DNA from: Clostridia bacterium
Lineage (GTDB): Bacteria > Bacillota > Clostridia > UMGS1883
Assembly (NCBI GenBank): GCA_017472685.1
Contig: JAFUOO010000004.1
Coordinates: 158,903-222,902 of the forward strand
Length of the DNA: 64,000 nucleotides
Reading direction: 5' to 3'
The notes under the pieces were generated by a model. That model searched no databases, had not been told where the DNA came from, and worked only from the letters and a program-made list of their open reading frames with translations. Below, one piece after another: positions 4,191-28,396 of the stretch; position 1 is the first letter of the stretch, and each line of letters starts with the position of its first letter. A program made the position numbers and the translations under genes.

Positions 4191-4265
4191 GACCATTAGC
4201 TCAGTTGGTAGAGCACCTGACTCTTAATCAGGGTGTCCCGGGTTCGAGTCCCTGATGGTCCACCA
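4191..4265 (+). tRNA. tRNA-Lys, anticodon CTT.
   Basis: Acceptor GGACCAT/ATGGTCC, D-arm GCTCAGTTGGTAGAGC, anticodon stem CCTGA/TCAGG with loop CTCTTAA. T-arm is GGGTTCGAGTCCC. CCA is encoded. Confidence 0.85.
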
Positions 4266-4680
4266 AAAAAAGGACAAGTTTCGAAAGGAACTTGTTCTTT
4301 TTTACTTATTACTTATTCACTCTTCACTATTCCCAAAATGTTTTTTTGTTGTCCCTTCTGGGCTACGCTCCGACGGGCTCAGCCATCGCCTTCATAAGGC
4401 TCGGCTTCACCTCGCAGGGACTCCTCGCTAAAAACAGTCCACCGGACTGTTTTCTTAACGCTCAGACTGATGGTCCACCAAAAAAAAAGACAAGTTTCGA
4501 AAGGAACTTGTTCTTTTTTACTTATTACTTATTCACTCTTCACTATTCCCTAAATGTTTTTTTTGTCCCTCCTGCGCTACGCTCCGACGGGCTCAGCCAT
4601 CGCCTTCATAAGGCTCGGCTTCACCTCGCAGGGACTCCTCGTTAAAACGACTTACTGTAAAGTAGGTCGTTTTTCTTAAT
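4252..4680 (+). repeat. Two tandem copies of a roughly 215-bp unit (4252-4466 and 4467-4680). Each begins with the 14-nt tRNA-Lys 3' end ctgatggtccacca.
   Basis: The two units are near-identical. Each has a terminator-like hairpin (gacaagtt-tcgaaagg-aacttgtc plus a T-run), an AT-rich stretch, and a GC-rich block of about 70 nt (ggctacgctccgacgggctcagccatcgccttcataaggctcggcttcacctcgcagggactcc). The 3' ends diverge but both end in a hairpin plus T-run. Confidence 0.8.
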
Positions 4681-4895
4681 TTCTGTATTCTGCTATTTTT
4701 TTGCCTTTTGACAGCTAAATGACTTTTTTAAAAAGATTATACTCACCGACCTTTAGTGGCTCGGTGAGGATTCGTTTAGTTTATTTTTTGAAACGATAAA
4801 TGTGGGGAAATGTGTTGAAAAGCTAAGAAAAATATGATATGTTAATCAAAAGGTGACTGTTTGCTGAAATATCGATGAAGGAGGTTGAGAAAAGA

Positions 4896-5642
4896 ATGTC
4901 AAATTATCTTGGATTTGATGCAGTCGACTGTGAAAAATTTTATTTTGCAAGTTATAATACGGAAGATAAAGAGCGGGTCGCCAAATATGCTAAAGAGCTT
5001 TCAGAATATGTATCGGTTTGGTATGATTATGGAATCAAAGCGGGATGTGAGTGGGAGAAAGAAATAAATGAGCATATTAAGAGCTGTGAATCACTTATTA
5101 TATTTATAACAAATAACATTTTTTCGAAAGAAGATTCGTATGTGCGAACGGAATATGATATAGCTAAATTTTATAAAAAGCCTATTTATATTGTGTTTCT
5201 TGATGAAATAAATGAATCTTTATTTCCAACTGAATATGTTGCCTGGTGGGTAAAAATGTGTCGTTTACAGGGCGTTAAAAGATCTGACTATTTGGACTAT
5301 AAAGATTGTATTAAAGCTTTAGTAAGAGATATTGGTTGCGAAAACAATAGTAATTCAACTGAAAATGTGAGAATTATCGAATATGATGATGGTATTTTCA
5401 ATGGTGAAGTCGTAAATGAAAAGAAACATGGAAAAGGTCGTTATGAGTTTAAAAACGGAGATGTGTACGAAGGCGAATTTCAAAATGATAAAATGCATGG
5501 TTATGGAAAATATGTTTGGATGAATGGAGATGTATATGAAGGTGAATTTCAGAACGGAATGCGAGATGGAATAGGGAAAACTACATACATAAGCGGAGAT
5601 GTGTACGAGGGAAGATATCAAAACGGCAAAAAAGTGAAGTAG
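4896..5642 (+). CDS. TIR-domain protein with C-terminal MORN repeats.
   Basis: The N-terminus has a TIR-like pattern (FYFASYNTEDKE ... W.DYG ... IIFIT.N...S..V..E). The C-terminus has three or more MORN repeats (GDVYEGEFQNgxxhGxGk). RBS GAAGGAGG is upstream. An alternative start lies at 4875. Confidence 0.6.
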   Translation: MSNYLGFDAVDCEKFYFASYNTEDKERVAKYAKELSEYVSVWYDYGIKAGCEWEKEINEHIKSCESLIIFITNNIFSKEDSYVRTEYDIAKFYKKPIYIVFLDEINESLFPTEYVAWWVKMCRLQGVKRSDYLDYKDCIKALVRDIGCENNSNSTENVRIIEYDDGIFNGEVVNEKKHGKGRYEFKNGDVYEGEFQNDKMHGYGKYVWMNGDVYEGEFQNGMRDGIGKTTYISGDVYEGRYQNGKKVK

Positions 5643-5706: not shown

Positions 5707-5745
5707 AAAATCTGCAGGCTAAAATTGGTCTGCAGATTTAATCTT
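5707..5745. terminator. Bidirectional rho-independent terminator between convergent genes.
   Basis: Hairpin aaatctgcag...ctgcagattt flanked by A and T runs. Confidence 0.5.
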
Positions 5746-5897: not shown

Positions 5898-6575
5898 TTA
5901 AACGTAAAACTCTTCTAACGTATTTAAACAGATGCAACCAAGTGTATAGCCATATATTGCGCCACAATCTATGGCTATATGATTGTTTTTTGAGTATATC
6001 CTGCCATGATAGTTTTTATCAATTGTGAAAGTAGGAGTATGACCTGTGACCAGTATTTTGTCATCAAAATAAGCTTTTTGATAGTTGCATCTGCCACATA
6101 TAATATCTTCAGTGCTGTAATCGCTTAATTTTTTATCCTGAGAAAAATTGGAAAGGCCGGCATGAACAAGAACAAATTCTTTTTCTTCAAGCTTTATGAT
6201 TTCATATAAAGAAAAGGTTTCTAAGTAGTCTAAAATTCGTTTTCTTTTGGAGTAGTTCTGAAGGATAAAGTCTTTTTTAGTAGCATTTCCACCGTTGACC
6301 ATCCATTCCTGCCATAGCTTCATAGTTGTATGGTCCAAATTCTCTTCAGCATTTAGCTTTGTTAAAACAGGGAGCGCCATTAGTTCATGATTTCCGCGAA
6401 GTGGAATGATGTTGGGTCGAGTCATCATATCTAATAATATTTTAATGCCCCCTTCGCCTCGATCTATTACATCACCCAAGATATACAGCTTGTCGTTACA
6501 ATTTAAGTTGATTTTTTCAAGCATTGTCCTGTATTCGTCATAACAACCATGCAAGTCGGACATCACATATATCAT
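5898..6575 (-). CDS. Calcineurin-like metallophosphatase, PPP-family Ser/Thr phosphatase or ApaH-like.
   Basis: Motifs DLHG, GDVIDRG and GNHE are present. It is the last gene of the minus-strand operon. Confidence 0.75.
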   Translation of the reverse strand: MIYVMSDLHGCYDEYRTMLEKINLNCNDKLYILGDVIDRGEGGIKILLDMMTRPNIIPLRGNHELMALPVLTKLNAEENLDHTTMKLWQEWMVNGGNATKKDFILQNYSKRKRILDYLETFSLYEIIKLEEKEFVLVHAGLSNFSQDKKLSDYSTEDIICGRCNYQKAYFDDKILVTGHTPTFTIDKNYHGRIYSKNNHIAIDCGAIYGYTLGCICLNTLEEFYV

Positions 6576-6590
6576 CTTTGTATACTACCT

Positions 6591-6911
6591 TTATAACTTC
6601 CTTCTTTTTATTTCCTTATGAGTGGCTTCATGAAGCATAACAACGTCAGAATAACTATGGCAACCATAATCAACATTTTTGCAAATGTTGGTTGCGTAAC
6701 AGGCATTGAACTTTTCTGCAGTTAAATCGCGTAAGAAAAGAGTGGTTGTCAGATCCATGAACATTTTATCTAAATCTTCGTTGCTCATATTAGGCAGACC
6801 GGATAAGAATGTGTCTACAGTGGTTTTGTTTATAGGTGTTTCAGTTTTTTTGCGCGATAAGAAAAAAACTATAGCCACTGCAATAAGAATTATAATTATA
6901 AAAGTAGTCAT
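6591..6911 (-). CDS. Small membrane protein, single N-terminal TM helix.
   Basis: ACGGAGGA RBS. The first roughly 20 residues are hydrophobic (TTFIIIILIAVAIVFFL). It is tightly packed within the operon. Confidence 0.4.
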   Translation of the reverse strand: MTTFIIIILIAVAIVFFLSRKKTETPINKTTVDTFLSGLPNMSNEDLDKMFMDLTTTLFLRDLTAEKFNACYATNICKNVDYGCHSYSDVVMLHEATHKEIKRRKL

Positions 6912-6963
6912 ATTTAATCCTCCGTTATCAAAATGCAGATTTTAAAAAATGTAAAGTCGTAAA

Positions 6964-7152
6964 TTATTCCTTTTCGTAATAAAAACAACCGTTTCTGTCA
7001 CTGGGTTTATTATAACCCCCGTAATCTCCCTCGCAACGAACTCTACCATCCTTATCTCTGTCGCGATAGTTTGCGTATATACAATCTGAACAATTGCCTT
7101 CAAAATGCCCCATAGGGAGTTCGATTCTTTCAATTTTTGTTGTGTTTGTCAT
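6964..7152 (-). CDS. Small Cys-containing protein of 62 aa, possibly a Zn-binding ribbon.
   Basis: Strong GGAGG RBS 8 nt upstream of the ATG at 7152. It contains CxxC (GNCSDC) plus two further Cys (RCEG...NGCFYY). The longer ORF in the track starts with a non-ATG codon. Confidence 0.4.
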   Translation of the reverse strand: MTNTTKIERIELPMGHFEGNCSDCIYANYRDRDKDGRVRCEGDYGGYNKPSDRNGCFYYEKE

Positions 7153-7175
7153 AATAAATACCTCCGTTTTGTTTG

Positions 7176-7604
7176 TTAAATAATTTCTAAAGCGTCTTGT
7201 GTAAGTTGGATGTCCAAATCTGCCCTGATTGCTTTGTAGCATATTAACTCTCGGTTCGGAAGAACAAATATAGGAAAATATAGTTCTGTTATACTATCGG
7301 GCATTGCATGCATAATATTGATTATGTATTCTTTATCGGCAGCAGATGGCGTTTTAATACCAAAAAAGTGTGAATGAAAAACTCCTTTAAAATGCTTCCC
7401 GTTTGATTGCCAATTTGATATACATGTGTTAAGGAATGTTACATTTGGAGAATAGGCACAAGTGTATGTCGTTTCCGATGGAATATCTAACACGATATCT
7501 GTAATGACATCTCCATCATTACTTCCTAATATGCCACCTGTTTCAGGGGGACTGGCACGAATTAAAGAGTTAAGATGATTGTACGCAACAGTTGAAATTT
7601 TCAT
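7176..7604 (-). CDS. JAB/MPN (JAMM) metalloprotease-domain protein.
   Basis: Complete JAMM motif: a Glu upstream (PPETGGILG) and H-x-H-x7-S-x2-D (HSHFFGIKTPSAAD). AAGGAGG RBS precedes the ATG at 7604. The track start at 7610 is TTG. Confidence 0.65.
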   Translation of the reverse strand: MKISTVAYNHLNSLIRASPPETGGILGSNDGDVITDIVLDIPSETTYTCAYSPNVTFLNTCISNWQSNGKHFKGVFHSHFFGIKTPSAADKEYIINIMHAMPDSITELYFPIFVLPNRELICYKAIRADLDIQLTQDALEII

Positions 7605-7777
7605 ATTCAATTATCCTCCTTGAAAAAAATGACAGCTCGTATTGAGTACATCTTTATTATACACATGATAAATATATGAGATTTTGGGGTGAAAGAAATA
7701 TGAGAGTGTTTATGAACTGCCTCTTACGATGTAACGTTGAAATTGTTTCTAAGAGGCAGTTCATTGAAACCGATCGC

Positions 7778-8746
7778 TTATCTGTTAGGGAGATAGTCGT
7801 AAGGATTTAAGGTGGGATTATTTATATTTCCATAACTCTTTTGACTATTACGAACTTCGTAATGAAGGTGAGGACCTGTACTATTGCCTGTAGACCCCAC
7901 AGTTCCTATCTGCTGACCTGCTGTTACATAATCACCTGCTTTGACACTGTAGCTATTGAGATGAGCGTAATATATATATACGGTTTTACTGTTAACGTTA
8001 CATTTAATAATGACATGTTTGCCATAGCTAGTCGTCAATGTTCTGGCAGTGTCCACAACTCCGCTGTATGTTGCGTAAACAGGAGTACCTTTAGAAGCGG
8101 AAATATCAGTGCCACTATGATACTTTCCGGAACTGTTATAACGAGGCCAATTCTTCTGATCTGTGCCACCATTGCCGCCAACAGGCCATACTTTTGTTTT
8201 GCTTGAGTTATTTGATGATGAATTGTTATTAGAGAGGTCTTCTGCAAAGGCTAATTTGTAGCCACGCTTGTTTGATTTTGCTTCATATATAGTATTGTAG
8301 TACTTACCTGACAGAACATATACTTTATCGCCGACACAATAGTATCCTGTTTTGCCGCCGCCGTTGTACTTATATGTTGTAACCTTCTTGTTTGCAGTGA
8401 AGGATGAAGAAGGAGAAATATTACCACCAAGCAAGTCGCTTGTACGAATGTAGCCTTCTCTGTGGGAGTTGCCTACGGGATAGGAAAGGTAGATGTATTT
8501 AGAAGTTATTTTATAGATGTAGCAAATATCACCTTTCTCTATATAGGCATTGTATTCTTTTGACGGACTGCTTGTACCTCTGGTATTGGTATTAGAAGAA
8601 GTATAAACGTTTAATTTTTTTACGGCAGTAAATTCGCAGTAGTTGCTTTTAGATAATGATGGGTAACTTGCGGCAGATGCACTTATACTAAGAAGAGAGA
8701 ACGCCATAATGATAGTTAATACAATTGAAATTATTCTTTTTGTCAT
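7778..8746 (-). CDS. Secreted SH3-like plus M23 (lysostaphin-like) peptidase. Paralog of 30764-31768.
   Basis: Signal peptide (MTKRIISIVLTIIMAFSLLSISASA) and two SH3-like modules. The M23 catalytic signature is HxxxD ... HLHYE. There is a low-complexity Ser/Asn linker. Confidence 0.7.
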   Translation of the reverse strand: MTKRIISIVLTIIMAFSLLSISASAASYPSLSKSNYCEFTAVKKLNVYTSSNTNTRGTSSPSKEYNAYIEKGDICYIYKITSKYIYLSYPVGNSHREGYIRTSDLLGGNISPSSSFTANKKVTTYKYNGGGKTGYYCVGDKVYVLSGKYYNTIYEAKSNKRGYKLAFAEDLSNNNSSSNNSSKTKVWPVGGNGGTDQKNWPRYNSSGKYHSGTDISASKGTPVYATYSGVVDTARTLTTSYGKHVIIKCNVNSKTVYIYYAHLNSYSVKAGDYVTAGQQIGTVGSTGNSTGPHLHYEVRNSQKSYGNINNPTLNPYDYLPNR

Positions 8747-9055
8747 AATTGTTAATCCTTTCTGTTTTAAATATTTATATTGAGACTGTAAAAGGAGTTC
8801 AGCAACACCTCCTTTAATAAAAGTTTTAAGAATTGATTCAAGAACTGTCATATTTTATACCTGACTTGAATAATAACCTTAACTTAATTAATGTTTTTGA
8901 CTGAGTAAATAAATGTGTTGGAACTTTGTTCATAATGAACCTCCTTAAGACTTAATGTTTCAATGTCAGTTGACACTTATATATATACCACGGGATGAAA
9001 AATAGAAAAAATGGGGGTGATAATTTGGTAGAGGTGTATTCAAAGAAGAACTTAA

Positions 9056-10069
9056 TTATATTCTGAAACCTATTTCGCGGTTTTCCGCAGATAGTTTGGT
9101 TGGAAGTTCTGCTTTAACAAATCCGGCATTAATCGAAATTGTTTGTGCACCTAAAGCCAACATATAAATAGCCCTGCGGAATATATTATCAGCAAGCTTT
9201 TCGACATCTCTCACTCCGGGTTCCGTACAAGCTTCACAGATTAACTTAATCGCTGATTCATAAAAAACTATTTCTGATTTCTCGACTTTATATTTCGAAT
9301 AAAGTTTTGGAATAATATAATTTTTTAAAATAAGATATTTTTCTTTTTTTGTATAGCCTTGTATATGTATTACATCTAATCGATCGCGGAGAATGGGATT
9401 TACCTCATTGATGTCGTTTGCGGTTAGGATAAATGTTATATTGGAAACGTCTAACGGGATAGCTAAAAATTGATCTATAAATGCGGTGTTTGTGCTATCA
9501 AAAAGTGAAAGGAGAGCCATTTGAGGACTTCGCTCATTCTTTTCCATTTTGTCCACTTCATCTAAACAGATTACGGCAGAAAAACTTCCGGAGCGCTGTA
9601 TAGCATCTGCTATATAACCTTGATTTGCAGCTTTCCATGTGGGATTGCTTCCCAAAAGCTCCCATTGAGCGGTGGTGCCTTGAAGTGGTACTTTATAAAA
9701 GGGTTCGTTGAGAACCTCGGCTATAATTTCGCAGATTGTGGTTTTGCCGGTGCCTGCAGGTCCTGTTAATAATATGCCTTTGCCGGACTTGCCGGTGCGT
9801 TCACGAACTGCCAACAATTGAAGAATTTTTGTTTTGGTTTCGTTCATGCCGTGATGCTGGGAGTTAAGCATTTCCTGTGCTTTTTGGTAGTCAATTTTAG
9901 TGTGTTCTTTTCCTATACTTGACCATGGAAGGCGTTTAATTGCTTCACGTTGTTCGGTGGTTAATACGTTGGATTTCCATATTTTATATGCGGCGGGCGA
10001 CATGTTTTTCTCCAATGTATCTTTCTTTTCGTCCAATGCTTCAAAAGCGCGTTCTATTTTTTCATCCAT
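9056..10069 (-). CDS. Lon-family AAA+ ATPase module without a protease domain.
   Basis: Walker A GPAGTGKT, Walker B CLDEVDK. A Lon-like sensor region (ILRDRLDVIHIQGYTKKEK) resembles the Lon PLLDRMEVI..GYTEEEK segment. The protein stops after the ATPase module. AAGGAG RBS precedes the ATG at 10069. Confidence 0.6.
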   Translation of the reverse strand: MDEKIERAFEALDEKKDTLEKNMSPAAYKIWKSNVLTTEQREAIKRLPWSSIGKEHTKIDYQKAQEMLNSQHHGMNETKTKILQLLAVRERTGKSGKGILLTGPAGTGKTTICEIIAEVLNEPFYKVPLQGTTAQWELLGSNPTWKAANQGYIADAIQRSGSFSAVICLDEVDKMEKNERSPQMALLSLFDSTNTAFIDQFLAIPLDVSNITFILTANDINEVNPILRDRLDVIHIQGYTKKEKYLILKNYIIPKLYSKYKVEKSEIVFYESAIKLICEACTEPGVRDVEKLADNIFRRAIYMLALGAQTISINAGFVKAELPTKLSAENREIGFRI

Positions 10070-10276
10070 ATTCAACACTCCTTAAAAATTAATTTGACTC
10101 TCCGCCTTACACCGATATAAATATCATACTGTAACGAGTTAAAATTTGGGGAGGGAAAGAAATGAGAGTTTATATGACAATAAGGTTAATGTAAAGGGCA
10201 AAACTTGACTTTATTTGTCATTTTTGAGATAATAGAAGCAAATGCAAAAGCTGTGTCAGAGGGGAGTGGCAAAATT

Positions 10277-12622
10277 ATGGAAATAGATGTATTTATAAGT
10301 TACAGTTCTAAAGAATTCAACAAAGCATTGTTGATAAAAGAAGCATTGTCGGAAAATGACATTTCAGTATGGATGGCTCCAGAGTCCATACCTATAGGGT
10401 CAAACTATACAAAGGAAATTCCTGTTGCAATTAAAAACTGTAAAATTTTTTTACTCATATTGTCACAAAATGCACAAAATTCTATATGGGTACCAGCAGA
10501 AGTTGAAAATGCATATAAAAATGAGAAACTTATTTTCCCATTTATAATAGAAGACTGTCCGTTAACAGAACAATTTGATTTTCTGTTGTCGATGAGTCAA
10601 AAAATAGAGGCAGCGCAGCCACCGATAGAACATAGAATAAGTGAACTCGTTGAAAAAGTTTTGTTGCATTTAGGTAGAAAACAAATAATCGATAAAACAA
10701 ATACAGGGAAAACCGAATATCAGCTGTCCACAATGAAAATTTATGCAGATAAAAACTTCAAAGGAAGAGATGCCGAGCTTGATATTATCCATAAAAATCT
10801 GATGTCAGATAAAAATAAGTTTTTTATTGTCGGAATGGGTGGATGCGGAAAGAGCGAGTTGGCAAACAGATACTGTGAGAAACATTCGAATGATTATGAA
10901 AATATCATAAAGATTACATACAGCGGTTCTTTGAAGGAATCTATTGCAAATGATAGTCCTTTGAATATTTGTGGGATTGTGCGCAATGAAAATTTGGATA
11001 AGAGCGTCGATGAATATTTTGAATACAAGCTTAATGTGTTAAAAAATATAACTGATGAAAGAACTCTGCTGGTTATCGATAATTTTGATGTATCGGAAGA
11101 TGAGAAGCTTGATGAACTGTGTAGCGGTAGATTTGCAATACTTTTCACAACTAGAAACAGGGTAATAAATAATAGATTTGAACAATTGTTATTGGATGAA
11201 GTCAAACTTGATACAAATGAACAATTTGAATTGTTTAAGGATTTTTATCAGATAGAATTAGAACAAGATGAGATTGAAATAATAATGGAAATCTTAACAT
11301 TGTTGGATGGGCACATTTTAAGTATAAGATTGGTTGCATCTACGATGAATTCTAATTGTATTGAACCTGATGAAATGCTCGATATTTTGAAAAATGTAGG
11401 CGCAAGTAAACAATCAGATGTTGTGTATTCTCGAATAAATAAATTGATGCAGTTATCGCAACTTTCAGAGGAAGAATTGTATTTGCTAAAAAATCTTTCT
11501 CTTGTTCCGCTGTCGGGAATCAAGAAAAAGACTTTTATTGAGTGGTGCGGAAAAGAAGATTTTGAAACAATAAATGGATTGATACAAAAAAGCTGGGTTA
11601 TTCGTGACAATAAGGATGTAATTCATTTGCATCCCATAATTTCCGATTTAGCATTTGAAGAATTAAGTAACAATTTTGGTCTTTGTGATAACTTCTTGCA
11701 TGCCTTGACAGAAAATTGTGAAGAAGCACATAAGTTAAACTATAAAAATAAACAGTGGTTAATTGAAACGACTAATTATTTATGTGATAAGTTTCGAAAT
11801 AATTCAGAATTGTGCCAGAAGATGCTAATGTCTAAAGCGCGTATGCTGAATCATTTGTCACGTTATGGAGAATCTATAGCTTTATATGAATCGATTCTCA
11901 GGTATAGGATTGATAGAGAAACCAAAAGATTGATTTGCGCGCGATTAGCGCACTTGTACTGTTTAAGTGGTTTCCCTGAGAAAGCATTAGAGAATGTGGA
12001 AACTTGTATTAGTGAATTTTTCTGCATAGATGTAGAAAAAATGACACCTGAAGAGCTATACATATATAAAGGAGTAATAACCCGACGTGTTGAAGCAAAT
12101 AGGCATTTGGGCAATTACGACATTGCAATATCAGATGCTCGAAAAGTTTTGGAGGTGTATTTGAAGGGCATCGATAATGAGTTGAATCGTAGTATACTAT
12201 GGGGAAAATATCATTTAGCAAGAGCACTGTATATGAGAGGATTGCCCCTGGATATAGAAGAAAGCGAAAAGCACATTTGCGAGGCAATAGAATTATGCGA
12301 GAGCGAAAAATCCTATTGGGATAAAGATTTTTGCATAGAATTACTAGCGCAGATACAGATGAAACAGGGAAAATATGAGCAAGCTATAGAAAATATGAAG
12401 CTTGCATATGAAAGTATAACAAATTTTTCCGGGAAAATTCATGTAGGTGTTGCAGTAAACCGTGTTTTCTTAGGTAATATATACCGCACCATGGGAAATG
12501 AAACCGAAGCAGTAAAATGTTACAATGAAGCAATCGAGATATTTCATAAATGCGGAACATTCAAGCTTGAAGATAATGCGAGATGCATACTTAATAGTGG
12601 AAAAATTGGATATGTAAGTTAA
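10277..12622 (+). CDS. TIR-STAND protein: N-terminal TIR, central P-loop NTPase (NB-ARC-like), C-terminal TPR-like repeats.
   Basis: TIR (DVFISYSSKE ... LLILSQN ... S.WV..E), P-loop GMGGCGKS, Walker B LLVIDNFD, and a C-terminal helical repeat region. The ATG at 10277 is preferred over the upstream in-frame start. Confidence 0.7.
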   Translation: MEIDVFISYSSKEFNKALLIKEALSENDISVWMAPESIPIGSNYTKEIPVAIKNCKIFLLILSQNAQNSIWVPAEVENAYKNEKLIFPFIIEDCPLTEQFDFLLSMSQKIEAAQPPIEHRISELVEKVLLHLGRKQIIDKTNTGKTEYQLSTMKIYADKNFKGRDAELDIIHKNLMSDKNKFFIVGMGGCGKSELANRYCEKHSNDYENIIKITYSGSLKESIANDSPLNICGIVRNENLDKSVDEYFEYKLNVLKNITDERTLLVIDNFDVSEDEKLDELCSGRFAILFTTRNRVINNRFEQLLLDEVKLDTNEQFELFKDFYQIELEQDEIEIIMEILTLLDGHILSIRLVASTMNSNCIEPDEMLDILKNVGASKQSDVVYSRINKLMQLSQLSEEELYLLKNLSLVPLSGIKKKTFIEWCGKEDFETINGLIQKSWVIRDNKDVIHLHPIISDLAFEELSNNFGLCDNFLHALTENCEEAHKLNYKNKQWLIETTNYLCDKFRNNSELCQKMLMSKARMLNHLSRYGESIALYESILRYRIDRETKRLICARLAHLYCLSGFPEKALENVETCISEFFCIDVEKMTPEELYIYKGVITRRVEANRHLGNYDIAISDARKVLEVYLKGIDNELNRSILWGKYHLARALYMRGLPLDIEESEKHICEAIELCESEKSYWDKDFCIELLAQIQMKQGKYEQAIENMKLAYESITNFSGKIHVGVAVNRVFLGNIYRTMGNETEAVKCYNEAIEIFHKCGTFKLEDNARCILNSGKIGYVS

Positions 12623-12976: not shown

Positions 12977-13582
12977 ATGAGCGGAATAAGAATTAAAGAG
13001 GAAAAGTATGTATTTATAAGCTATCATTCAAAATATTACATGGAAGCTTTTGCAATAAAAGAGCTGCTACAATGTAAGCAAATTCCTTGCTGGATAGTTC
13101 CTTACGATCTTCCTGATGGGTACTTATATGAGTGGATTATCAATGAAAATGTTGATAATTGTACTTGCTTTTTATTGTTGGAGGACGATACAGAAGATGG
13201 GCTTATAAACCGAGAAAGAGAACGAGCTATCTCATGTGGTAAAAGCATACTTAATGTTAAGCTACATGATTTTGTATTTGAACCATATTTAAAGTTTAAT
13301 CTGAAGGCAAGTTATGTGGCTCCCGGAAAAAGAATAGAACAAAATTTGTCAAAAACGCAAGAATTACTGGACACATTAATGGATATTACAGGAATTGAAT
13401 ATTCAGAGCCAAAGAGTGCACAACAAATTTTAGCGGAAATCGGGGCAGAACTGGAAGAAGAATTTGCAAAGTTTATCAAGGAGGATGAAGAGAATCCACC
13501 TACAATAATTGATAAAATAAAAAATTTTTTTGCAAGTATTTTCTGTTTGTTTGAAACTTGTGAGTATGAAGAAGATAAGTAA
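12977..13582 (+). CDS. Small stand-alone TIR-like domain protein.
   Basis: AAAAAGGAGA RBS. Shows the VFISYHSK ... W..P ... FLLLEDD pattern typical of bacterial TIR folds. Confidence 0.45.
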   Translation: MSGIRIKEEKYVFISYHSKYYMEAFAIKELLQCKQIPCWIVPYDLPDGYLYEWIINENVDNCTCFLLLEDDTEDGLINRERERAISCGKSILNVKLHDFVFEPYLKFNLKASYVAPGKRIEQNLSKTQELLDTLMDITGIEYSEPKSAQQILAEIGAELEEEFAKFIKEDEENPPTIIDKIKNFFASIFCLFETCEYEEDK

Positions 13583-13827
13583 TGAATAGAAGAAGGGTTT
13601 GCTGTTCACCTTTTTCACAAAGAGTTTTGAATGAATAGCCTTACCCTCCCAAAAAAATATGTTTTTTGTTTATGTATAATATATTTATCGAAGCGCTGTT
13701 AATAATGAGTAGCGTAAATATTGATAGGAGAGGTGAGATAAAAATGATAACATGCATTTTTCGAATAAGAGCATCCCCTTTTAATAATGCCTTTACTAAT
13801 TAAAAAAATATTAATGAGGTGAAACTT

Positions 13828-16779
13828 ATGAAAAAAATATTGTCGATTTTTTTAAGTGCTGTAATTATTTTTGCGCTGATACCAATTGAAAATGCAATGG
13901 CGTATGCTACAGGAGATGATTATCCGAGCGAGTATAAAAATGTTGAAAATAATTCCATTGTTGACCGATGGAACTTTTATAACCGTCAGTGCACCTCCTT
14001 TGTGGCCTGGTGCTTAAATAGCAGAAATGGAGTTAATTTTACAAATCAATACGGCGGTATTGCTCGTTGGGGAAACGCCAAAGAGTGGTATCAGGCTGCT
14101 CAAAATTTGGGTATTGCAGTCGATAATAATCCTGCGGTGGGTTCGGTTGCAGTATGGACAAGCGGTAAATATGGTCATGTTGCATGGGTCAAAAGCGTGA
14201 CAGGAGATCTTGTAACAATTGAAGAGTATAATTGGAGCGTTAAGGGTGGATACGGACAAAGAACAATATCAAAGTCTGAGGTCAATGGGTTTATACATAT
14301 AAAGGACATAATATCAAATACAGATGTTCCTGACCCTGATCCAATTGTCCCACCGTCAGATATTGTTGTCGAGTCAAATATTGTAGGTCACCTTGATAAG
14401 ATAAGCGTGACATTTAACAAAGTTTATGTTGAAGGATGGGCGACCTGTAGAAATCATCCTTCAAGTTCAATGCCAATACATATTCATATAGACGAACATA
14501 TCGAAGGCTTTCCAACCTCGGGTCACCGTCCGGATGCCGATGCGCATGTGGAAGCTTTGTGGGGAATACCTTCAGCTGATGGACTGCATGGGTTTGCAAA
14601 TACCGTATCAACAGGTAACCAGTTTGGAAAAAATGCAACGATATCTGTTTGGGGTGTTTGCGATGGGTGCTCAAGCGCATGCCTTTGGGTTGGACAGGTA
14701 TACCTCCCGAGAGGTTATACAGTAGCATATAATGCTAATGGAGGAAGCGGCGCTCCCGCTACAGAAACAAAAACTGAAAATGTTGACCTTATATTGTCAA
14801 CAACCATCCCGAAAAGAGCAAACTATTCCTTTATTGGATGGTCAGATTCTCCCGCTAGTACTGCAGCAAAATATATGGCAGGAGAAAAATATGCATCAAA
14901 TTCTGCGATAACTCTTTATGCCGTCTGGAAGAAAAACACTTATACTGTTACATACGATGCGAATGGCGGAGAATCAGTTTCAACAGAATACATAAGTGTT
15001 AGCCATGGAAACTCAGCAAATTTGAGTCAGACCGCCTACAGGGCAGGATACCAATTCTGTGGATGGAATACCAATCCAAATGCGACAAACGCATTAAGTG
15101 AACTTACAATCTCTCAAAATACAGTTGTCTACGCAATCTGGGAGTTAATCGAAGTGAATGTTGAGAAGGTTGAACTTAACAAACCATCAATTGAATTAAA
15201 GGTTGGAATGAGTGAAGAACTGGTTGCAACAATCATTCCTTCGAATGAGACCGGTAAAACCATTATTTGGACAAGCTCAAACGAGGCCGTAGCAACCGTG
15301 GAAAACGGCATTGTCACTGCACGAAGCGCAGGAGATACGCTCATAACAGCAATGGTAGATGGAATAAGTGCAGAATGCACAGTTACCGTTACAGAGCCTG
15401 TAGCAGAGAGTGAAAAAATACAATTGAGAGTCGGCAGTGCAGCGGGTATAAAAGGACAAACTGTGACCATTCCTATTACAATCAACGAAAATTTCGGCAT
15501 AGCAGGCTTTAAGGTTAATATCCAATACGACGCTGGTGTGCTTAATCCCATTTCAATAGAAAAAGGTGAGGCTATCTCTCAACATGGCACGTTGATTACA
15601 AACATAAACCAGCCGCAAGAGAATGTGCAGACCCCTATGCATGTAACAGCATTATGGACTAATCCTTCTGATATAACAGAAAACGGCAATCTACTCCTGG
15701 TTACGTTTAAAATACTCGAAAATGCAGAAGAGGGGACATATCCTGTTTCCGTAACCTATAAACAAGGAGATGTTACAAATCAAGTTTATGAGGATGTTGA
15801 GTTTAATGTGGTTAATGGCGTAGTGTCTGTAATAAACGTGCTTAAAGGCGACGTCTATGTAGATAACCTACTGTCGACAAAGGATCTTTTAAAACTTGGA
15901 CAATACCTTGCAAATTGGCCTATTGACTTCACAGCGTATGAAAAAGACGCTGCAGACATACACGTTGATGGCCTCATTAATACTAAAGATAGCATAAAAC
16001 TTTCGCAAAGCTTGCTTGACGAAACAGAAATGATACAACTTATGGAGTCGAATGACGCAGGCAGTATTACGCTTGAAGCCGGCAATAGCGAAATTGTTAA
16101 TGATTTTGTAGACATCCCTGTCACAATGGTCGAAAATGTTGGTGTCGCAGGTATGAAAATTAAGCTCAGCTATGACAATACAATCCTGACCCCGGTGTCA
16201 ATTACAAGAGGCGAAGCTCTTATGGGCAACGGAGTAATGATATGCAATCTTGACCAGGAGTGTGATTTCTCTACACTCGAAGAGGTGACAATATTTTGGG
16301 CAAACTCGACGAACATCATGAACACTGGGGTAGCGTGTACCGTAAGATTTAAAGTAAGAGATGACATAGAAGATGATATCGTTATAAAACTCAGTTGTGA
16401 GGAAGGCGATATCTGCGATCAGTACTGTAGTGATTTGGAGGTTACACTTAGAAACGGCAAGGTGATTACACAGAATATCAAACAGGATTACACTGTAAAA
16501 TCGATTAGCGGTGAATTTGCAAATGGTAGTATTTATGTGGAAGCAGAGCTGGTTAAGAACACTGACCGAAAGAATAAAGATACGTTTATAATTGCTCTTT
16601 ACGAAGATGACGTTATGGTTGATATGGCTTATATAAAGGCCGAATTCGAAGAAGACTGTAGTTTTTCCTTCGGTGGTATTTTAAAAGGTGCAGAAAACGC
16701 AACGTTAAAAGCTTTTGTATTGGATAGTTTGTCAGGTATGCAATCACTCAGCAATGTTATTGAAAAAACAGTAAAATAG
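13828..16779 (+). CDS. Cell-surface multidomain protein: signal peptide, CHAP amidase/peptidase, Listeria-Bacteroides repeats, Big_2, cohesin, dockerin-like, cohesin.
   Basis: CHAP Cys/His (NRQCTSFVAWC ... GHVAWV). Flg_new-type repeats (YTVAYNANGG..., YTVTYDANGG...). Big_2 (IIWTSSNEAVATV). Two cohesin-like modules. A dockerin-like pair of Ca-binding segments (DVYVDNLLSTKDLLKL, DIHVDGLINTKDSIKL). GAGGTG RBS precedes the ATG at 13828. Confidence 0.65.
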   Translation: MKKILSIFLSAVIIFALIPIENAMAYATGDDYPSEYKNVENNSIVDRWNFYNRQCTSFVAWCLNSRNGVNFTNQYGGIARWGNAKEWYQAAQNLGIAVDNNPAVGSVAVWTSGKYGHVAWVKSVTGDLVTIEEYNWSVKGGYGQRTISKSEVNGFIHIKDIISNTDVPDPDPIVPPSDIVVESNIVGHLDKISVTFNKVYVEGWATCRNHPSSSMPIHIHIDEHIEGFPTSGHRPDADAHVEALWGIPSADGLHGFANTVSTGNQFGKNATISVWGVCDGCSSACLWVGQVYLPRGYTVAYNANGGSGAPATETKTENVDLILSTTIPKRANYSFIGWSDSPASTAAKYMAGEKYASNSAITLYAVWKKNTYTVTYDANGGESVSTEYISVSHGNSANLSQTAYRAGYQFCGWNTNPNATNALSELTISQNTVVYAIWELIEVNVEKVELNKPSIELKVGMSEELVATIIPSNETGKTIIWTSSNEAVATVENGIVTARSAGDTLITAMVDGISAECTVTVTEPVAESEKIQLRVGSAAGIKGQTVTIPITINENFGIAGFKVNIQYDAGVLNPISIEKGEAISQHGTLITNINQPQENVQTPMHVTALWTNPSDITENGNLLLVTFKILENAEEGTYPVSVTYKQGDVTNQVYEDVEFNVVNGVVSVINVLKGDVYVDNLLSTKDLLKLGQYLANWPIDFTAYEKDAADIHVDGLINTKDSIKLSQSLLDETEMIQLMESNDAGSITLEAGNSEIVNDFVDIPVTMVENVGVAGMKIKLSYDNTILTPVSITRGEALMGNGVMICNLDQECDFSTLEEVTIFWANSTNIMNTGVACTVRFKVRDDIEDDIVIKLSCEEGDICDQYCSDLEVTLRNGKVITQNIKQDYTVKSISGEFANGSIYVEAELVKNTDRKNKDTFIIALYEDDVMVDMAYIKAEFEEDCSFSFGGILKGAENATLKAFVLDSLSGMQSLSNVIEKTVK

Positions 16780-16969
16780 AGTTTGGCGCTGTAGATTTTT
16801 CAGGTCTGCTAAGGGTGATGGAAAGTGAGGGGGAGATTGTAGCATTCCTTTAACCGTATTCTCAAATAAGGAATTTGATTTGTATTGTTTGAGGCAGAAA
16901 GAACTTGATTCAGAAATTTATAAATTAACATCAACAGATGATGAAAATTAATTGTGGGGGATTAATACA

Positions 16970-17683
16970 ATGAAATTAAACGAGTGCGCAGAATTCATTA
17001 AAGCAGAAATTGACAAGGCGACAGCGCTATTGAAATCGGGTAAGCAATTACAGTGTAAAAAAGCATTTGGAATATTACATAATATTGCACAAATAAACAA
17101 GGAGGAGTTTTCGAAAAACACAAAAGCGGTAGTTGATTATGCAGATTGTTTTTATAACGGAAAGGGGGTAGCCCAGAACTTAGAAAAGGCATTTGAATGG
17201 TACGCTATTGCTGCAGAGAAAAATTTTGCTGTAGCCCTGAGGAAACGAGGAATCTGCTATTTTTATGGTAAAGGGTGCGAAAAGAACTACGATTTAGCAA
17301 CAGCAGATTTTACACAGGCAGTGGATGAAGGCGATATTTTAGCAAATTTGTACTTAGCAGTTTGTTTTGATTATGGCATGGGAGTAAAGCAAGACTATGA
17401 AGAAGCCTTGAAATATTATCAGGCTGCAGCGAAGAAGGGATATATAACCGCTAAAAGAAGGTTGGGTGATTATTATTTAAAAGGTATCGCATCAGAGATT
17501 AATGAAGAAAAAGCTATTGAACTGTACCATGAATGCATAGCACATGGCGATCCGGAGGCAATGCTTAGATTGGCAAATTGTTATTATGAAGGGCAAGGGG
17601 TTACTAAAAACAGCATTAAGGGCTCTTGTTATGATTTGCGAGCCTCGGGAGAAAAGAAACTGCCTATGGCTACAAAAATTTAA
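16970..17683 (+). CDS. Sel1-like (TPR-like) repeat protein.
   Basis: Repeated A.EWY..AA..G...A.......Y..G.GV modules. GGGGG RBS precedes the ATG at 16970. The track start at 16952 is TTG. Confidence 0.55.
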   Translation: MKLNECAEFIKAEIDKATALLKSGKQLQCKKAFGILHNIAQINKEEFSKNTKAVVDYADCFYNGKGVAQNLEKAFEWYAIAAEKNFAVALRKRGICYFYGKGCEKNYDLATADFTQAVDEGDILANLYLAVCFDYGMGVKQDYEEALKYYQAAAKKGYITAKRRLGDYYLKGIASEINEEKAIELYHECIAHGDPEAMLRLANCYYEGQGVTKNSIKGSCYDLRASGEKKLPMATKI

Positions 17684-17697
17684 GAATAAAATAATAA

Positions 17698-17735
17698 GAC
17701 TGAGCCTTGACTTAATGTCAAGGCTCAGTTTGTGT
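17698..17735. terminator. Bidirectional terminator between convergent genes.
   Basis: Hairpin gactgagccttgac-ttaat-gtcaaggctcagt. Confidence 0.55.
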
Positions 17736-19970
17736 GTAGATATTTGCTTTTCTTAATAATTCTTGCGGGGTGTACAAAGGAAAGATACCCGTTTCATCTT
17801 CCAAAGAGACTGCAACAATATTTTGAGCCGTGTTGGCATCAAGGTAGCCCTCGACTTTGTATTTGAGAGAAAGTGTTTCAGTGTTAATGAAATATGCAGT
17901 GCTGTCAAGCTTTAGCATTAAAAGATTTTCAGAAGGGAAATATTCATAGCTGACGGAATCGAAGGTTGTGTTTAATTCCAAACTGTCAATGATTGAATAA
18001 TCTGATAAATCTATTTTATGAAGCTTGGCATCGGATGAAAAAACAGTAAGCGTATTTTTATTGTCAACAAACAATAATTTCTGTATTGGAATACTGGAAT
18101 TAAAGTGTTTTACAGGTCTGGTTGTATAAATGTCGTAAATCATCAATTTCGGCATACGGAATGAATCGTTTTGAAGTGAGTTGTAGAAGAGTATACCTGC
18201 ATAGTTGTCTGAAATCCAAATTAAATCAGTATTTTCCTCTTTTTGTTTGGGTAGGGTTAGTGCCATTTGTGATTCATTGGGGTCATAAAACACATATGTA
18301 GTTTCATTTTCCTTGCTATGTTGCATAATTTCTGCAATGATTTTACCGGTAGAAGAAACTTTAAATTTGGTGATATAGGAATCGGGGTTATTCGTGAAAA
18401 ATTCGGGAACCCATTCAATAAATGCGTTGTTGCGGGAATAAATCAATGCGCCCGACTCGGATACGAAGTAAATGTTTTCATTGAAAACAGATGGAATAGA
18501 ATTTGCCTTGCCTTGGTATGAAAAAAGCTCCTTCTTGCCAGGCAAGTCATAGACTGACGTTGCAGTGCTTGACTGCAGGCAAATTTTATTGTCGCTGACA
18601 AAGCAAGCATGGGAAGCATTAGGCAACTCTTTAAAAAATTGGGTGTTTTCCGTAAATGTGTTGTATAGATATGCTTTATCAGAATTGGTGAAAAGAGCGT
18701 ATTCTCCCGATGGACTGAAGGTGAAGTTTGAAATAGGGGAGAATTCAAAGGATAGCGGGATAAAATCCTCGTTGGGAGAGGCGATTGTGTAGACGAAAAC
18801 ATCGACAGACGGAGGTGTTGATACAACATACGTGTTATTGTATTGAGAAGAGAGGGATGTTGTGTCTGCATAGGATGGTGCAGCAAGATAGTCATCTGTA
18901 TCTGCTGAATTGGCGATGATTTCTCCCGTGAAAGCATCTATTGTTTTAATTTCGTGATTTTCTATAAGCAAAAAAATGTGAGCATCTTCAGGGGAAGCAG
19001 CTCCAAATGAAAGTTTGGTATCTTTTGAAGCGGAGAGCTTTGCTACTAAATAACCATCTTTGCGCCAAAGATAAAACGCGTTTTCATCCCTTGTTAAAAT
19101 AGTTTGGCCCATGCAGGTGTGGGTAACGTAGGAAACCGGGTGTTCGTGAGAAAGGGTTGAAATGTGCTTTTTGAATGACGGACTGAAAGCGCCGATTTCC
19201 TCTGAAAGAAGGTGAAGAGCGTTGTCAGGAATTTTATCAGAATCCTTAATTGAGGAAATTTCATCAGTAAGCATTGTGACAGCAGATAAAATGTCGCCCG
19301 AATTATATTTTTTCAATGAGTCTTCAACAACGTTGAGAGTATTTTCTGTTTGAAGATTGTTATCCAGTGAAAAAATATTACCCAATAAACATGCTAAAAC
19401 AATGAAAAGAAACAATGCGGAGATGATTACGGAAAGTGCTCGTTGTTTTCTTCGACGCTTTACGCGGTCATTTAGTTTATTAAATTCGCAATCTAAAAGG
19501 GAAGCTGCTATTCTTAAACATTCATTCTTTATAACTCTCTTTTTTACGGGGAAGGAACACTTTGAAAAATCACAAGCTATCCAATTATTATCATACAATT
19601 CTTTAGGCAGAACTTCTTTTGCATCGCCGCTTATAATACAAGGGACTATGCCTTTGTAGCTGTTATCGAAGTTTCTTTTTTTGTAAAAGTTAATTTCATT
19701 AGAACAGAACTTGGATTTAGGGTAGTTGTCCGAATAGAGAGCAATTAAAAATTCGGATTTTAATATTTTATGATAGATTTCGGTGTTAACTGGTTTTGCT
19801 GCGTTAAAATCGGTTTTATCAAGACAAATCTTCCATTTTTTGAAGTTTTTGGGACGAAGCTTTTTGGGAGGAGTAAAGGTTTCCAAAAAACGTTGAATTT
19901 GTTGAGCTACGCCTTTGTCGTCATCGTGCTTATAGCTGATAAAAGCTTTGTATTCGTAATTTGTGTTCAT
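17718..19970 (-). CDS. TIR-domain protein with one TM helix and a large extracytoplasmic beta-rich (propeller-like) C-terminal region.
   Basis: N-terminal TIR (KAFISYKHDDD ... LIALYS.NY..S.FC..E). TM segment LSVIISALFLFIVLACLLG. About 550 aa of beta-strand-rich repeats. GAGGTG RBS. Confidence 0.6.
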   Translation of the reverse strand: MNTNYEYKAFISYKHDDDKGVAQQIQRFLETFTPPKKLRPKNFKKWKICLDKTDFNAAKPVNTEIYHKILKSEFLIALYSDNYPKSKFCSNEINFYKKRNFDNSYKGIVPCIISGDAKEVLPKELYDNNWIACDFSKCSFPVKKRVIKNECLRIAASLLDCEFNKLNDRVKRRRKQRALSVIISALFLFIVLACLLGNIFSLDNNLQTENTLNVVEDSLKKYNSGDILSAVTMLTDEISSIKDSDKIPDNALHLLSEEIGAFSPSFKKHISTLSHEHPVSYVTHTCMGQTILTRDENAFYLWRKDGYLVAKLSASKDTKLSFGAASPEDAHIFLLIENHEIKTIDAFTGEIIANSADTDDYLAAPSYADTTSLSSQYNNTYVVSTPPSVDVFVYTIASPNEDFIPLSFEFSPISNFTFSPSGEYALFTNSDKAYLYNTFTENTQFFKELPNASHACFVSDNKICLQSSTATSVYDLPGKKELFSYQGKANSIPSVFNENIYFVSESGALIYSRNNAFIEWVPEFFTNNPDSYITKFKVSSTGKIIAEIMQHSKENETTYVFYDPNESQMALTLPKQKEENTDLIWISDNYAGILFYNSLQNDSFRMPKLMIYDIYTTRPVKHFNSSIPIQKLLFVDNKNTLTVFSSDAKLHKIDLSDYSIIDSLELNTTFDSVSYEYFPSENLLMLKLDSTAYFINTETLSLKYKVEGYLDANTAQNIVAVSLEDETGIFPLYTPQELLRKANIYTQTEP

Positions 19971-23868: not shown

Positions 23869-23885
23869 ATAATGAGGTGTTATAT

Positions 23886-28240: not shown

Positions 28241-28396
28241 TATATAGGTGCTATTTGAGGGGTCTTCTTGCGGCAGAAAACTGTTTGATAAGGAAACCCC
28301 TCAAATTAAAAATCATATTATTGCGAATATTGGGAGATGGCTTATTTATATGTTGAGCAACATATAAATAGCAAAGTTTAAATGTGGGGAATGTGT

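Follow-up and report, generated by a model that had tools for sequence, protein, structure and literature searches.

The locus analysed here lies in a stretch of 64,000 nucleotides (the window) and comprises four genes on the minus strand. They encode a JAB/JAMM (MPN+) metallopeptidase of 142 aa (JAB, 7176-7604), a four-cysteine mini-protein of 62 aa (CYS, 6964-7152), an N-terminally anchored membrane protein of 106 aa (6591-6911) and a PPP-family metallophosphatase of 225 aa (5898-6575). The ORF listing and direct reading of the sequence bear out both the four genes and the tight packing described in the initial annotation (gaps of 15-52 nt), the intergenic distances being 23, 52 and 15 nt. 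A Shine-Dalgarno sequence had been assigned to every gene; this is clear for JAB (AGGAGG) and for CYS and the membrane protein (GGAGG), whereas the site preceding the phosphatase gene is weaker and of the AAGG type. Translation of JAB starts at the ATG at 7604 with AGGAGG ahead of it, while the mechanically called ORF extends to a TTG at 7610. The operon had been drawn up to position 7717, but coding sequence reaches only to 7604, and 7605-7717 is noncoding upstream leader and promoter. A promoter-like sequence, found by a scan and by direct reading and identified by its consensus match only, is located 5' of JAB at 7656-7693 on the minus strand (TTCACC-17-TATCAT, overlapping the extended -10 element TGTGTATAAT). 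Between it and the stop codon of the adjacent M23 peptidase gene lies a perfect 15-nt inverted repeat, ATGAACTGCCTCTTA / TAAGAGGCAGTTCAT, with 23 nt between its arms (7712-7764), a possible terminator or operator. At the other end, a hairpin with a 14-bp stem (5708-5739) separates the convergent phosphatase and TIR-MORN genes, in agreement with the bidirectional hairpin proposed earlier, and is terminator-like for both directions by its sequence. The four genes are real and probably transcribed as one unit. Further upstream, the same strand encodes an M23 peptidase (7778-8851) and, at 9056-10078, a Lon-type AAA+ ATPase module that lacks a protease domain; both were recognized with Pfam and NCBIfam, provide context only and are syntenic solely in locus L022.

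JAB retains an intact JAMM site, as had been noted: E21 in the sequence PPETGG is followed by H77-S-H79-x7-S87-A-A-D90, and E21, H77, H79, S87 and D90 are invariant across 35 family members. The protein was assigned to the MPN fold and is closest in fold to JAMM enzymes that cleave ubiquitin-like proteins (Ubl) or C-terminal tails. It is predicted to be an active JAMM-type zinc (iso)peptidase. A conserved cysteine, C49, lies in the Ins-1 region of JAB (residues 41-55). The match of the window protein to the Pfam family Prok-JAB (PF14464) has an E-value of 3.6e-4 and, at 20.8 bits, stays under the gathering threshold of 25 bits. Weak matches to the same model were obtained for 25 of the 35 members, the best at E 1.9e-4, and no E-value among those obtained points to a score beyond the threshold. 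Judged by these profile scores, the proteins form a divergent subfamily that the curated model does not cover. Several established types of JAB protein were considered and rejected. JAB does not qualify as a RadC/DUF2466 protein, in which the JAB domain usually follows an HhH N-terminus, nor as a phage tail-tip MPN protein of the lambda gpK type, since it carries no NlpC/P60 fusion and lies outside tail modules; in phage contigs, the genes adjoining JAB and CYS encode terminase, portal and MuF proteins rather than tail proteins. The possibility raised at the outset that JAB is a phage-tail or RadC-type remnant devoid of conserved partners is contradicted by these results and by CYS, which is such a partner. 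Toxin-type JAB domains are C-terminal toxin domains on RHS or other secreted carriers and are accompanied by an Imm65 or Imm-NTF2 immunity gene (PMC3482391). JAB is a stand-alone protein of 142 aa in which the carrier region is absent, and it yields no DUF4329 match.

CYS is rare, with only 80 representatives in 1.84 billion proteins, nearly all of them stand-alone proteins of 55-90 aa. C21, C40 and C56 are invariant, and conservation of C24, P13, G15, F17 and P50 reaches 90% or more. The initial annotation had called the protein Zn-ribbon-like. To judge by the conservation of its four cysteines, CYS presumably binds metal; no significant match to a curated Zn-binding model or structure was found. 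CYS has no sequence match in Pfam or the PDB, none of 44 members has a match to any Pfam family better than E 0.014, and the best match among PDB profiles has an E-value of 0.26. An AF2 model based on a 9-sequence alignment reached a pLDDT of 50.7, too low for use, and a beta-grasp fold is not predicted in this low-confidence model. Some family members carry C-terminal transmembrane (TM) anchors (P0058, P0077, P0066 and P0071). A possible cleavable C-terminal tail of the small protein had been put forward as a point to check; the C-terminus is unconserved and has no Gly-Gly end. The motif YGGYN is invariant among close relatives only, and the family at large has G-Y/W-x-x-P instead. That JAB cleaves CYS at a Gly-Gly was rejected as a general feature.

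In 100 of 109 sequences, the window included, the two genes adjoin each other in the same orientation, and the linkage was seen whichever of them served as query. CYS is present at all 22 loci found with JAB, and both genes occur at 72 of the 80 metagenome loci found with CYS alone. Six of the remaining eight are truncated by the end of the contig, L062 keeps JAB, and only L033 lacks it in spite of sufficient room. Altogether, CYS stands without a detectable JAB at two loci where a neighbour would have fitted (L027 and L033), and even divergent CYS proteins of 35-39% identity adjoin JAB (L023 and L025). Note that the collected loci, which represent 41 JAB clusters at 90% identity, include many redundant human-gut copies, 54 loci falling in three clusters, and that they lean towards relatives of the window pair, as the genome and metagenome pattern scans used the narrower alignments A2 and A3. 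The distance between the two genes is often just a few nucleotides. Their order varies, with CYS ahead of JAB in L008 and L025 and CYS genes on either side of JAB in L023. Two metagenomic proteins, P0067 and P0091, read as in-frame JAB-CYS fusions, for which a frameshift or an assembly artefact is possible; in L028, their nearest relative, the stop codon of JAB and the start codon of CYS are 1 nt apart. The divergences of the two proteins correlate (Spearman 0.57), and CYS is the more conserved of the two in 95% of 528 pairs (mean pairwise identity 60.3%, compared with 40.9% for JAB). No description of a JAB gene paired with a cysteine-rich mini-protein was found in the literature searched, including PMC7159879, PMC3482391 and PMC5512222. 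JAB and CYS are, as far as this literature shows, an undescribed gene pair of prophages, conjugative elements and genomic islands in gut Clostridia.

The two remaining genes behave differently. As described previously, the membrane protein is a single-pass protein. Its one hydrophobic helix is N-terminal (residues 1-19) and followed by SRKK, such that the C-terminal part is predicted to be cytoplasmic. Profile searches gave no family match, and the only homologue among the collected loci is encoded in L022 (72% identity). The gene occupies the place where other loci have N-terminally anchored Sel1 proteins; that it is a degenerate Sel1 protein gains no support from Pfam, which gave no Sel1 match, or from BLAST, which gave no link to Sel1 family F2. 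The assignment of the fourth protein to the PPP phosphatases is upheld by Pfam Metallophos (2e-16), by the motifs DLHG, GDVIDRG and GNHE, corresponding to DxHG, GDxxDRG and GNHE, and by a full-length match (residues 2-224, 4.7e-43) to the NinI-like Ser/Thr phosphatase profile phrog_246 of PHROGs. Its activity is predicted. It shares the signature motifs with lambda phosphatase/NinI and PrpA/PrpB/ApaH, but scores far under the cut-offs of the NCBIfam equivalog models for ApaH, PrpA/B and PrpE, for which reason it is classified from sequence as a generic member of the PPP family. Homologues near JAB were detected only in L022, where the gene carries an in-frame stop, and in L005 (40% identity), where it is located 4 kb from the pair across an IS110.

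These data bear directly on the original proposal that JAB, the Zn-ribbon-like protein, the membrane protein and the phosphatase form one new four-component system. The short gaps with no internal terminator found, the single promoter-like site and terminal hairpin that frame the four genes, the identical gene order in L022 and the related phosphatase in the L005 island are all in line with it. L022, however, does not provide independent evidence because it represents a closely related version of this island (85% identity between the JAB proteins), and its phosphatase gene is interrupted. In none of the other approximately 29 dereplicated loci is the membrane protein encoded, and the phosphatase recurs only at its distance in L005. 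The missing co-occurrence largely refutes the four-component reading, which we regard as extremely unlikely: only JAB and CYS travel together. The earlier interpretation is supported in part: JAB and the cysteine-rich gene are linked, but the four-gene operon is not a conserved unit. For annotation, the unit of study is JAB plus CYS, the conserved core genes, with CYS as the obligate genomic partner; the membrane protein is a lineage-specific add-on and the phosphatase variable cargo.

The window cassette resides beside tRNA-Lys in an island of low GC content with many TIR, STAND and kinase genes. The island encodes at least four TIR proteins, which confirms the TIR-rich surroundings reported before, and a PD-T4-6-like kinase; in the TIR-MORN neighbour (4875-5642), Pfam identified TIR_2 and MORN. 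Both the window pair and the L022 pair lie beside a TIR-NB-ARC-TPR gene. The tRNA-Lys 3' end recurs as an att-like repeat only at the left edge of the island, an integrase was not found in it, and the search for conjugative machinery turned up only cell-wall hydrolases (CHAP, M23) and a SprT-like protein. In other loci, integrases lie near the pair (L001, L009 and L013), a VirD4/TraG coupling protein is encoded in L023 and PcfJ in L025, L008 is a Mu-like phage contig, and in the L102-type locus, which is 98-99% identical to six IMG/VR contigs, MuF and PBECR5 adjoin the pair. A tblastn search of PLSDB plasmids with JAB gave no match, and the single match among INPHARED phages is an unverified, unannotated and chromosomal-looking 4-kb scaffold. 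Proteins with Sel1 repeats, small membrane proteins and Xre regulators are repeatedly encoded close to the pair. Sel1 proteins were encountered in 17 of the 31 dereplicated loci, and many of them have a TM helix at the N- or C-terminus; since Sel1 or membrane partners accompany the pair at roughly half of the loci only, they are not obligatory. In the three loci L049, L055 and L084, transglutaminase-like proteins are encoded beside the pair. In full agreement with the initial annotation, genes for Ubl, E1, E2 or CD-NTase proteins are absent from the flanking genes scanned across 4.9-33.8 kb of the window. The combination of CD-NTase and Cap2 typical of type II CBASS was found neither there nor in 27 related loci, for which 144 neighbour proteins were scanned over flanks of 7-8 kb. 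Likewise, no ThiF, UBC or Ubl families indicative of Bil or other Ubl-conjugation operons (BilABCD, Bub, PRTRC and 6A-E types), and no BilA, BilB or BilD, were encountered among the neighbours scanned in the window and these loci.

The explanation we prefer, and hold with medium confidence, is that JAB and CYS constitute a two-gene cassette, a JAMM peptidase module of two subunits carried as cargo by mobile elements and acting in genetic conflict. The two genes would be inherited together on prophages, conjugative elements and integrase-flanked islets of gut and rumen Clostridia, and their products may form a complex. By analogy with the partners of Rpn11, CSN5 and BRCC36, CYS could be a specificity or gating subunit of JAB; alternatively, it could be a dedicated substrate. 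The complex might work at the cytoplasmic face of the membrane together with Sel1-repeat and tail- or N-anchored proteins, its commonest companions, and cleave a peptide or isopeptide bond in a protein of the host or of a rival element during inter-genomic conflict, a role suggested by genomic context. The window cassette would then have acquired two extra co-transcribed genes, for the small membrane-anchored protein and the lambda-type PPP phosphatase.

Other explanations place the pair more specifically. It may be part of a defence or abortive infection system, as sensor, regulator or effector pair, at times wired to STAND NTPases and TIR proteins, with the Sel1 and membrane proteins as effectors or adaptors. 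Besides the TIR-NB-ARC-TPR gene, the TIR proteins and the kinase mentioned above, the co-directional gene strings of L005 and L023, in which the pair follows a kinase-NB-ARC-TPR STAND protein, the divergent Xre regulators common upstream of the pair and its presence as a low-GC moron within a high-GC Mu-like phage speak in favour of this. STAND neighbours, however, occur in only four of 31 dereplicated loci, equivalent to two or three independent contexts, housekeeping rather than defence genes flank many loci, a conserved effector is not apparent and PADLOC returned no matches save generic JAB models; we consider this reading unlikely. To a similarly low degree we credit an anti-defence function, by which a stand-alone Cap3/BilC-like isopeptidase with CYS as cofactor would strip Ubl or CD-NTase conjugates and thereby, on entering a new host, disable immunity that depends on conjugation (type II CBASS, Bil-type or related systems). 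This would leave unexplained why the obligate partner is the more conserved protein and why Sel1 and membrane proteins are neighbours. Moreover, JAB resembles Cap3 no more than it resembles archaeal JAMM1 or Rpn11, evidence of Ubl-conjugating defences in the Clostridia hosts was not obtained, and at many loci the pair occupies a small chromosomal islet together with a divergent Xre regulator, as is typical also of defence and toxin-antitoxin modules.

Two small, tightly linked and sometimes overlapping genes of variable order on mobile elements, often with an Xre regulator upstream, could also be a toxin-antitoxin or addiction pair that stabilizes the element, one protein neutralizing the other, for example JAB degrading CYS or being inhibited by it. 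Antitoxins are usually less conserved than their partner toxins, while here the smaller of the two proteins shows the higher conservation. The occurrence of CYS in duplicate and of TM-anchored variants fits poorly as well, similarity to known toxin or antitoxin families is lacking, and we assign this reading a decidedly small chance. Slimmer still is the chance that CYS is a new, small, metal-stabilized tag or pro-protein unrelated to beta-grasp Ubls, with JAB as its dedicated processing or removal enzyme and variable neighbours, such as the transglutaminase-like proteins, perhaps as ligating enzymes. If this were true, a JAMM system for modification or processing that does without Ubl proteins would be present on mobile elements of gut Clostridia.

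To our knowledge, every well-understood JAMM peptidase acts on a ubiquitin-like or CD-NTase tail and is encoded beside the machinery that makes the conjugate. JAB has an intact active site and a fold like that of Ubl proteases, but no such machinery nearby, and is instead coupled strictly to a slower-evolving orphan. If a JAB-CYS complex exists, a bacterial MPN+ enzyme would be partnered or targeted in a new manner, and this would suggest a JAMM substrate that does not belong to the Ubl world. Its presence on prophages, conjugative elements and islands of Clostridia that are abundant in the human gut and the rumen also makes the pair a candidate for a defence or anti-defence role in a group that has received little study.

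Among known systems, RadC/DUF2466 JAB proteins and lambda gpK-type tail MPN proteins share the JAB fold and are likewise commonly carried by phages and conjugative elements. JAB is near the stand-alone prokaryotic JAMM/MPN+ peptidases that cleave Ubl proteins at their C-terminal tail (JAMM1 of P. furiosus, PDB 5ld9/5lda, and of Haloferax, and the Mec+/QbsD type), with a sequence identity of only 13%. These enzymes partner a beta-grasp Ubl (SAMP, CysO or QbsE), usually with an E1-like gene, neither of which was found among the JAB neighbours scanned, whereas the conserved partner of JAB is a four-cysteine mini-protein without a Gly-Gly C-terminus. Cap3 of type II CBASS and BilC of Bil are anti-phage JAB isopeptidases; compared with these, JAB scores below orthologue level and its obligate partner is a different one. 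The eukaryotic MPN+ enzymes Rpn11, CSN5 and BRCC36 rely on a partner, as JAB may rely on CYS. In Rpn11-Rpn8, CSN5-CSN6 and BRCC36-Abraxas, this partner is itself an MPN- protein, whereas CYS is a 60-residue cysteine-rich domain unrelated to MPN.

Reading of the sequence together with the ORF listing resolves positions 5898-7604 on the minus strand of the window into four genes. They encode the JAB/JAMM metallopeptidase (JAB; 7176-7604, 142 aa, with AGGAGG ahead of the ATG at 7604), the 62-aa Cys-rich mini-protein CYS (6964-7152), a 106-aa membrane protein (6591-6911) with a single N-terminal hydrophobic helix followed by SRKK, to which no family could be assigned, and a 225-aa phosphatase (5898-6575), which is a lambda/NinI-type PPP enzyme (phrog_246, 4.7e-43; Metallophos, 2e-16). 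Intergenic gaps of 23, 52 and 15 nt bear out the arrangement described in the initial annotation, although the span of 5898-7717 given there takes in non-coding leader beyond the coding end at 7604. A Shine-Dalgarno sequence, attributed there to every gene, is clear and of the GGAGG type at three of the four starts but weaker for the phosphatase. Between JAB and the upstream M23 peptidase gene lie a sequence resembling a promoter (7656-7693) and an inverted repeat with perfect 15-nt arms (7712-7726/7750-7764), and the terminal hairpin was recovered as a 14-bp structure (5708-5739) between the unit and the convergent TIR-MORN gene.

The proposal that the four genes co-occur as one system did not survive comparison with related loci. 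When the four proteins were compared by BLAST with the first 22 of these and neighbour families were clustered across 31 dereplicated loci, the membrane protein recurred only in L022. This locus represents the same island in a close relative, with a JAB of 85% identity and syntenic genes for TIR-NB-ARC-TPR, AAA and M23 proteins. Its phosphatase gene (9044-9742) contains one in-frame TGA, at a codon that is TGT (Cys, within EDIICGRC) in the window. The gene is known from one Logan contig and is either a pseudogene or misassembled. The only other phosphatase relative (40% identity) resides in L005, 4 kb downstream of JAB past an IS110 transposase gene and surrounded by RNase_T and Macro genes. 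The membrane protein and the phosphatase are not conserved partners of JAB and CYS; in the window they are probably co-transcribed passengers from a variable pool of island cargo.

What does recur is the pair of JAB and CYS. All 22 loci retrieved by JAB-seeded searches contain CYS (22/22), and a metagenome scan with CYS only yielded 80 loci, 72 of which carry both genes. Six of the remaining eight end at a contig edge, L062 keeps JAB on a 1-kb contig, and L033 alone lacks JAB despite sufficient room. Both genes are on the same strand in 100 of the 109 sequences collected, window counted, usually in the order JAB then CYS with gaps of 2-113 nt; a gene intervenes in two exceptions (DUF6273 in L001, HD_4 in L005). 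Even divergent CYS proteins (35-39% identity) are still encoded beside JAB, as CYS-JAB-CYS in L023 and CYS-JAB in L025, with L027 as a CYS-only exception. Since the loci reduce to 41 JAB clusters at 90% identity, three of which hold 54 loci, the linkage does not stem from a single clone. Divergences of the two proteins correlate (Spearman 0.57), and mean pairwise identity is 60.3% for CYS versus 40.9% for JAB, with CYS more conserved in 95% of 528 pairs. JAB and CYS are a strictly linked, co-inherited two-gene cassette in which the small protein is the more constrained partner. The family comprises 35 JAB clusters in 5.8 billion proteins and 80 CYS representatives in 1.84 billion proteins. All named hosts are Clostridia metagenome-assembled genomes from gut and rumen (Oscillospiraceae, Acutalibacteraceae, Ruminococcus, Lachnospiraceae).

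CYS matched nothing in Pfam, PADLOC, NCBIfam, PHROGs or PDB sequences, and its structural model is unusable (pLDDT 50.7). Among 44 diverse members the pattern (I/L)P-x-G-x-F-x-G-N-C-x-x-C is followed by about 15 residues, a cysteine, some 10-15 residues including P-x-x-R-x-G, and a last cysteine. Of the four cysteines, three never vary and the other is kept in at least 90% of members, which suggests that they form a single metal site. A Gly-Gly cleavage site as in ubiquitin-like (Ubl) proteins was considered and is unsupported, because the YGGYN motif is kept in close relatives and not in the wider family, and because the C-terminus is variable. With few exceptions, members stand alone and measure 55-90 aa; some have a transmembrane anchor at the C-terminus (P0058, P0077) or an extension with several TM segments (P0066, P0071). 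P0067 and P0091 read as in-frame JAB-CYS fusions, which may be real or frameshift artefacts; L028, a relative of these two, has 1 nt between the genes. Small proteins composed of short repeats (e.g. FYDSRGNL, GFIDASGMWR) adjoin the pair in L001 (5758-5982) and L016 (8787-9029). In P0059 repeats of this kind follow a CYS domain in the same protein, fused at its C-terminal end, and the CYS motif F-Y-D-R-D-x-Y-G-R-V resembles one of them. An unassigned C-terminal module, 'EGCYIATAVYGSYDAPEV..LRKFRDNVLKK', is conserved on neighbours of the pair, fused to a CYS-like Cys-rich N-terminus in L081 (7278-7862) and L029 (1330-1827) and to Sel1 repeats in L002 (6781-7602).

In the window, the pair resides on a conflict island. 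GC content falls from about 45% to about 33% across roughly 4.8-37.5 kb, beginning just past tRNA-Thr and tRNA-Lys. The last 14 nt of tRNA-Lys (CTGATGGTCCACCA, including CCA) repeat 215 nt downstream within a tandem duplication of about 215 bp (4252-4680, copies 96-100% identical) at the left island edge. No third copy occurs in the window, and the repeat resembles a scar of att-type integration. Neither integrase nor conjugation genes could be recognised in the island (about 4800-37500). The TIR-rich surroundings noted initially are evident from four Pfam-supported proteins, namely TIR-MORN (4875-5642), TIR-NB-ARC-TPR (10205-12622) and two further TIR proteins (17718-19970, minus strand; 28382-30079), plus a TIR-like 201-aa protein supported by BLAST only (12977-13582). 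CHAP-cohesin-Big_2 (13819-16779), Sel1 (16952-17683) and SprT-like (20195-20767) proteins are also encoded. A PP2C phosphatase gene lies directly upstream of that for a 1359-aa Ser/Thr kinase (together 23215-27956), whose kinase domain matches PD-T4-6 defence kinases and whose C-terminus matches Card1-like/CARF-associated PD-(D/E)xK nuclease models; the two look like a kinase-phosphatase-nuclease conflict module. Two secreted, paralogous M23 peptidases of the island (7778-8851 and 30719-31768) are 42% identical, and a third, more distant one is encoded at 50641-51834. A 340-aa protein (9056-10078, minus strand) consists of a Lon AAA+ ATPase module with lid (TIGR00763 region 300-567, 7e-63), has no protease domain, matches PADLOC DolB weakly (9.6e-10) and is conserved with the adjacent M23 peptidase in L022 only.

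Elsewhere, Sel1 repeats lead the Pfam census of neighbours by far (15 of 144 proteins, 27 dereplicated loci), and BLAST families place Sel1 proteins in 17 of 31 loci. Many have a transmembrane helix at the N- or C-terminus that is flanked by basic residues towards the repeats, suggesting that the Sel1 part faces the cytoplasm. Divergent Xre-type HTH regulators and tyrosine recombinases also recur, as do a two-TM coiled-coil family of about 310-350 aa (five loci), TM2-domain proteins and small lipoproteins (three loci each), and MBL-fold hydrolases, transglutaminase-like proteins and TerY-C zinc domains (two to three loci each). STAND NTPases adjoin the pair as TIR-NB-ARC-TPR in the window and L022 and as kinase-NB-ARC-TPR in L005 and L023. 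The latter two share an upstream string of this STAND protein (~1470 aa) and ~480-aa and ~159-aa proteins without family, then JAB/CYS, which in L023 runs on into a VirD4/TraG coupling-protein gene. The variant represented most often in the collection (31 loci; L049, 5127-10913, and L055) has TerY-C zinc-domain and transglutaminase-like proteins upstream of JAB, and an MBL-fold hydrolase, two vWA proteins and a PARG/DUF2263-like protein downstream. Sel1 and membrane proteins are frequent, non-obligatory company.

Several loci show the pair residing on mobile elements. Integrases are encoded beside the pair in L001, L009 and L013, the coupling protein in L023, and PcfJ with a SprT-like protein in L025. 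The L102 type (6555-9475) ranks among the three most prevalent variants collected from human gut (10 metagenome loci), and there the pair adjoins genes for a PBECR5 nuclease and a MuF-like protein; this type is 98-99% identical to six IMG/VR predicted viral contigs (L109-L114), so the variant is prophage-borne. In the Mu-like, high-GC IMG/VR contig L008 a low-GC CYS-JAB moron (7704-8375), its gene order reversed relative to most loci, sits between terminase and portal/MuF genes.

We propose that the two proteins assemble into a complex, with CYS as a targeting or gating subunit or else as a dedicated substrate of the peptidase. The target of such a complex would be a protein of the host or of a rival element, attacked at the inner membrane face, and the outcome may be defence, anti-defence or maintenance of the element. 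The two genes are linked with unusual consistency, and CYS, an orphan domain, is more strongly constrained than JAB; the family has few members and a narrow taxonomic range, and the observations so far point to no specific mechanism.

The active site of JAB, E21 and H77-x-H79-x7-S87-x-x-D90, is intact as initially claimed and invariant in 35 homologues, and both motif and fold place the protein in the JAMM/MPN+ superfamily. Its confident AlphaFold model (pLDDT 91.8) scored 16.3 against Pyrococcus furiosus JAMM1, 14.3 against Rpn11, 14.2 against Cap3, 12.0 against BilC and 9.1 against RadC, and Foldseek ranked these relatives in the same order; the modelled fold is of the class that cleaves Ubl tails. 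By sequence JAB is an outlier, with 20.8 bits for Pfam Prok-JAB versus a threshold of 25 bits, weak Prok-JAB matches in 25 of the 35 family members, E 2.4e-6 for the best PADLOC CBASS JAB model, and no match in NCBIfam or PHROG. JAB does not belong to CBASS Cap3, to Bil-type or other Ubl operons, to polymorphic-toxin JAB proteins, to RadC or to the tail-tip MPN families; a defining feature of each was checked and is lacking. The lack of Ubl, E1, E2 and CD-NTase partners noted initially extends to the neighbours scanned (144 proteins, 27 loci), and the literature searched yielded no description of a JAB gene paired with one for a Cys-rich protein. JAB is a JAMM peptidase with CYS as a new obligate genomic partner and with no Ubl machinery among the neighbours scanned.
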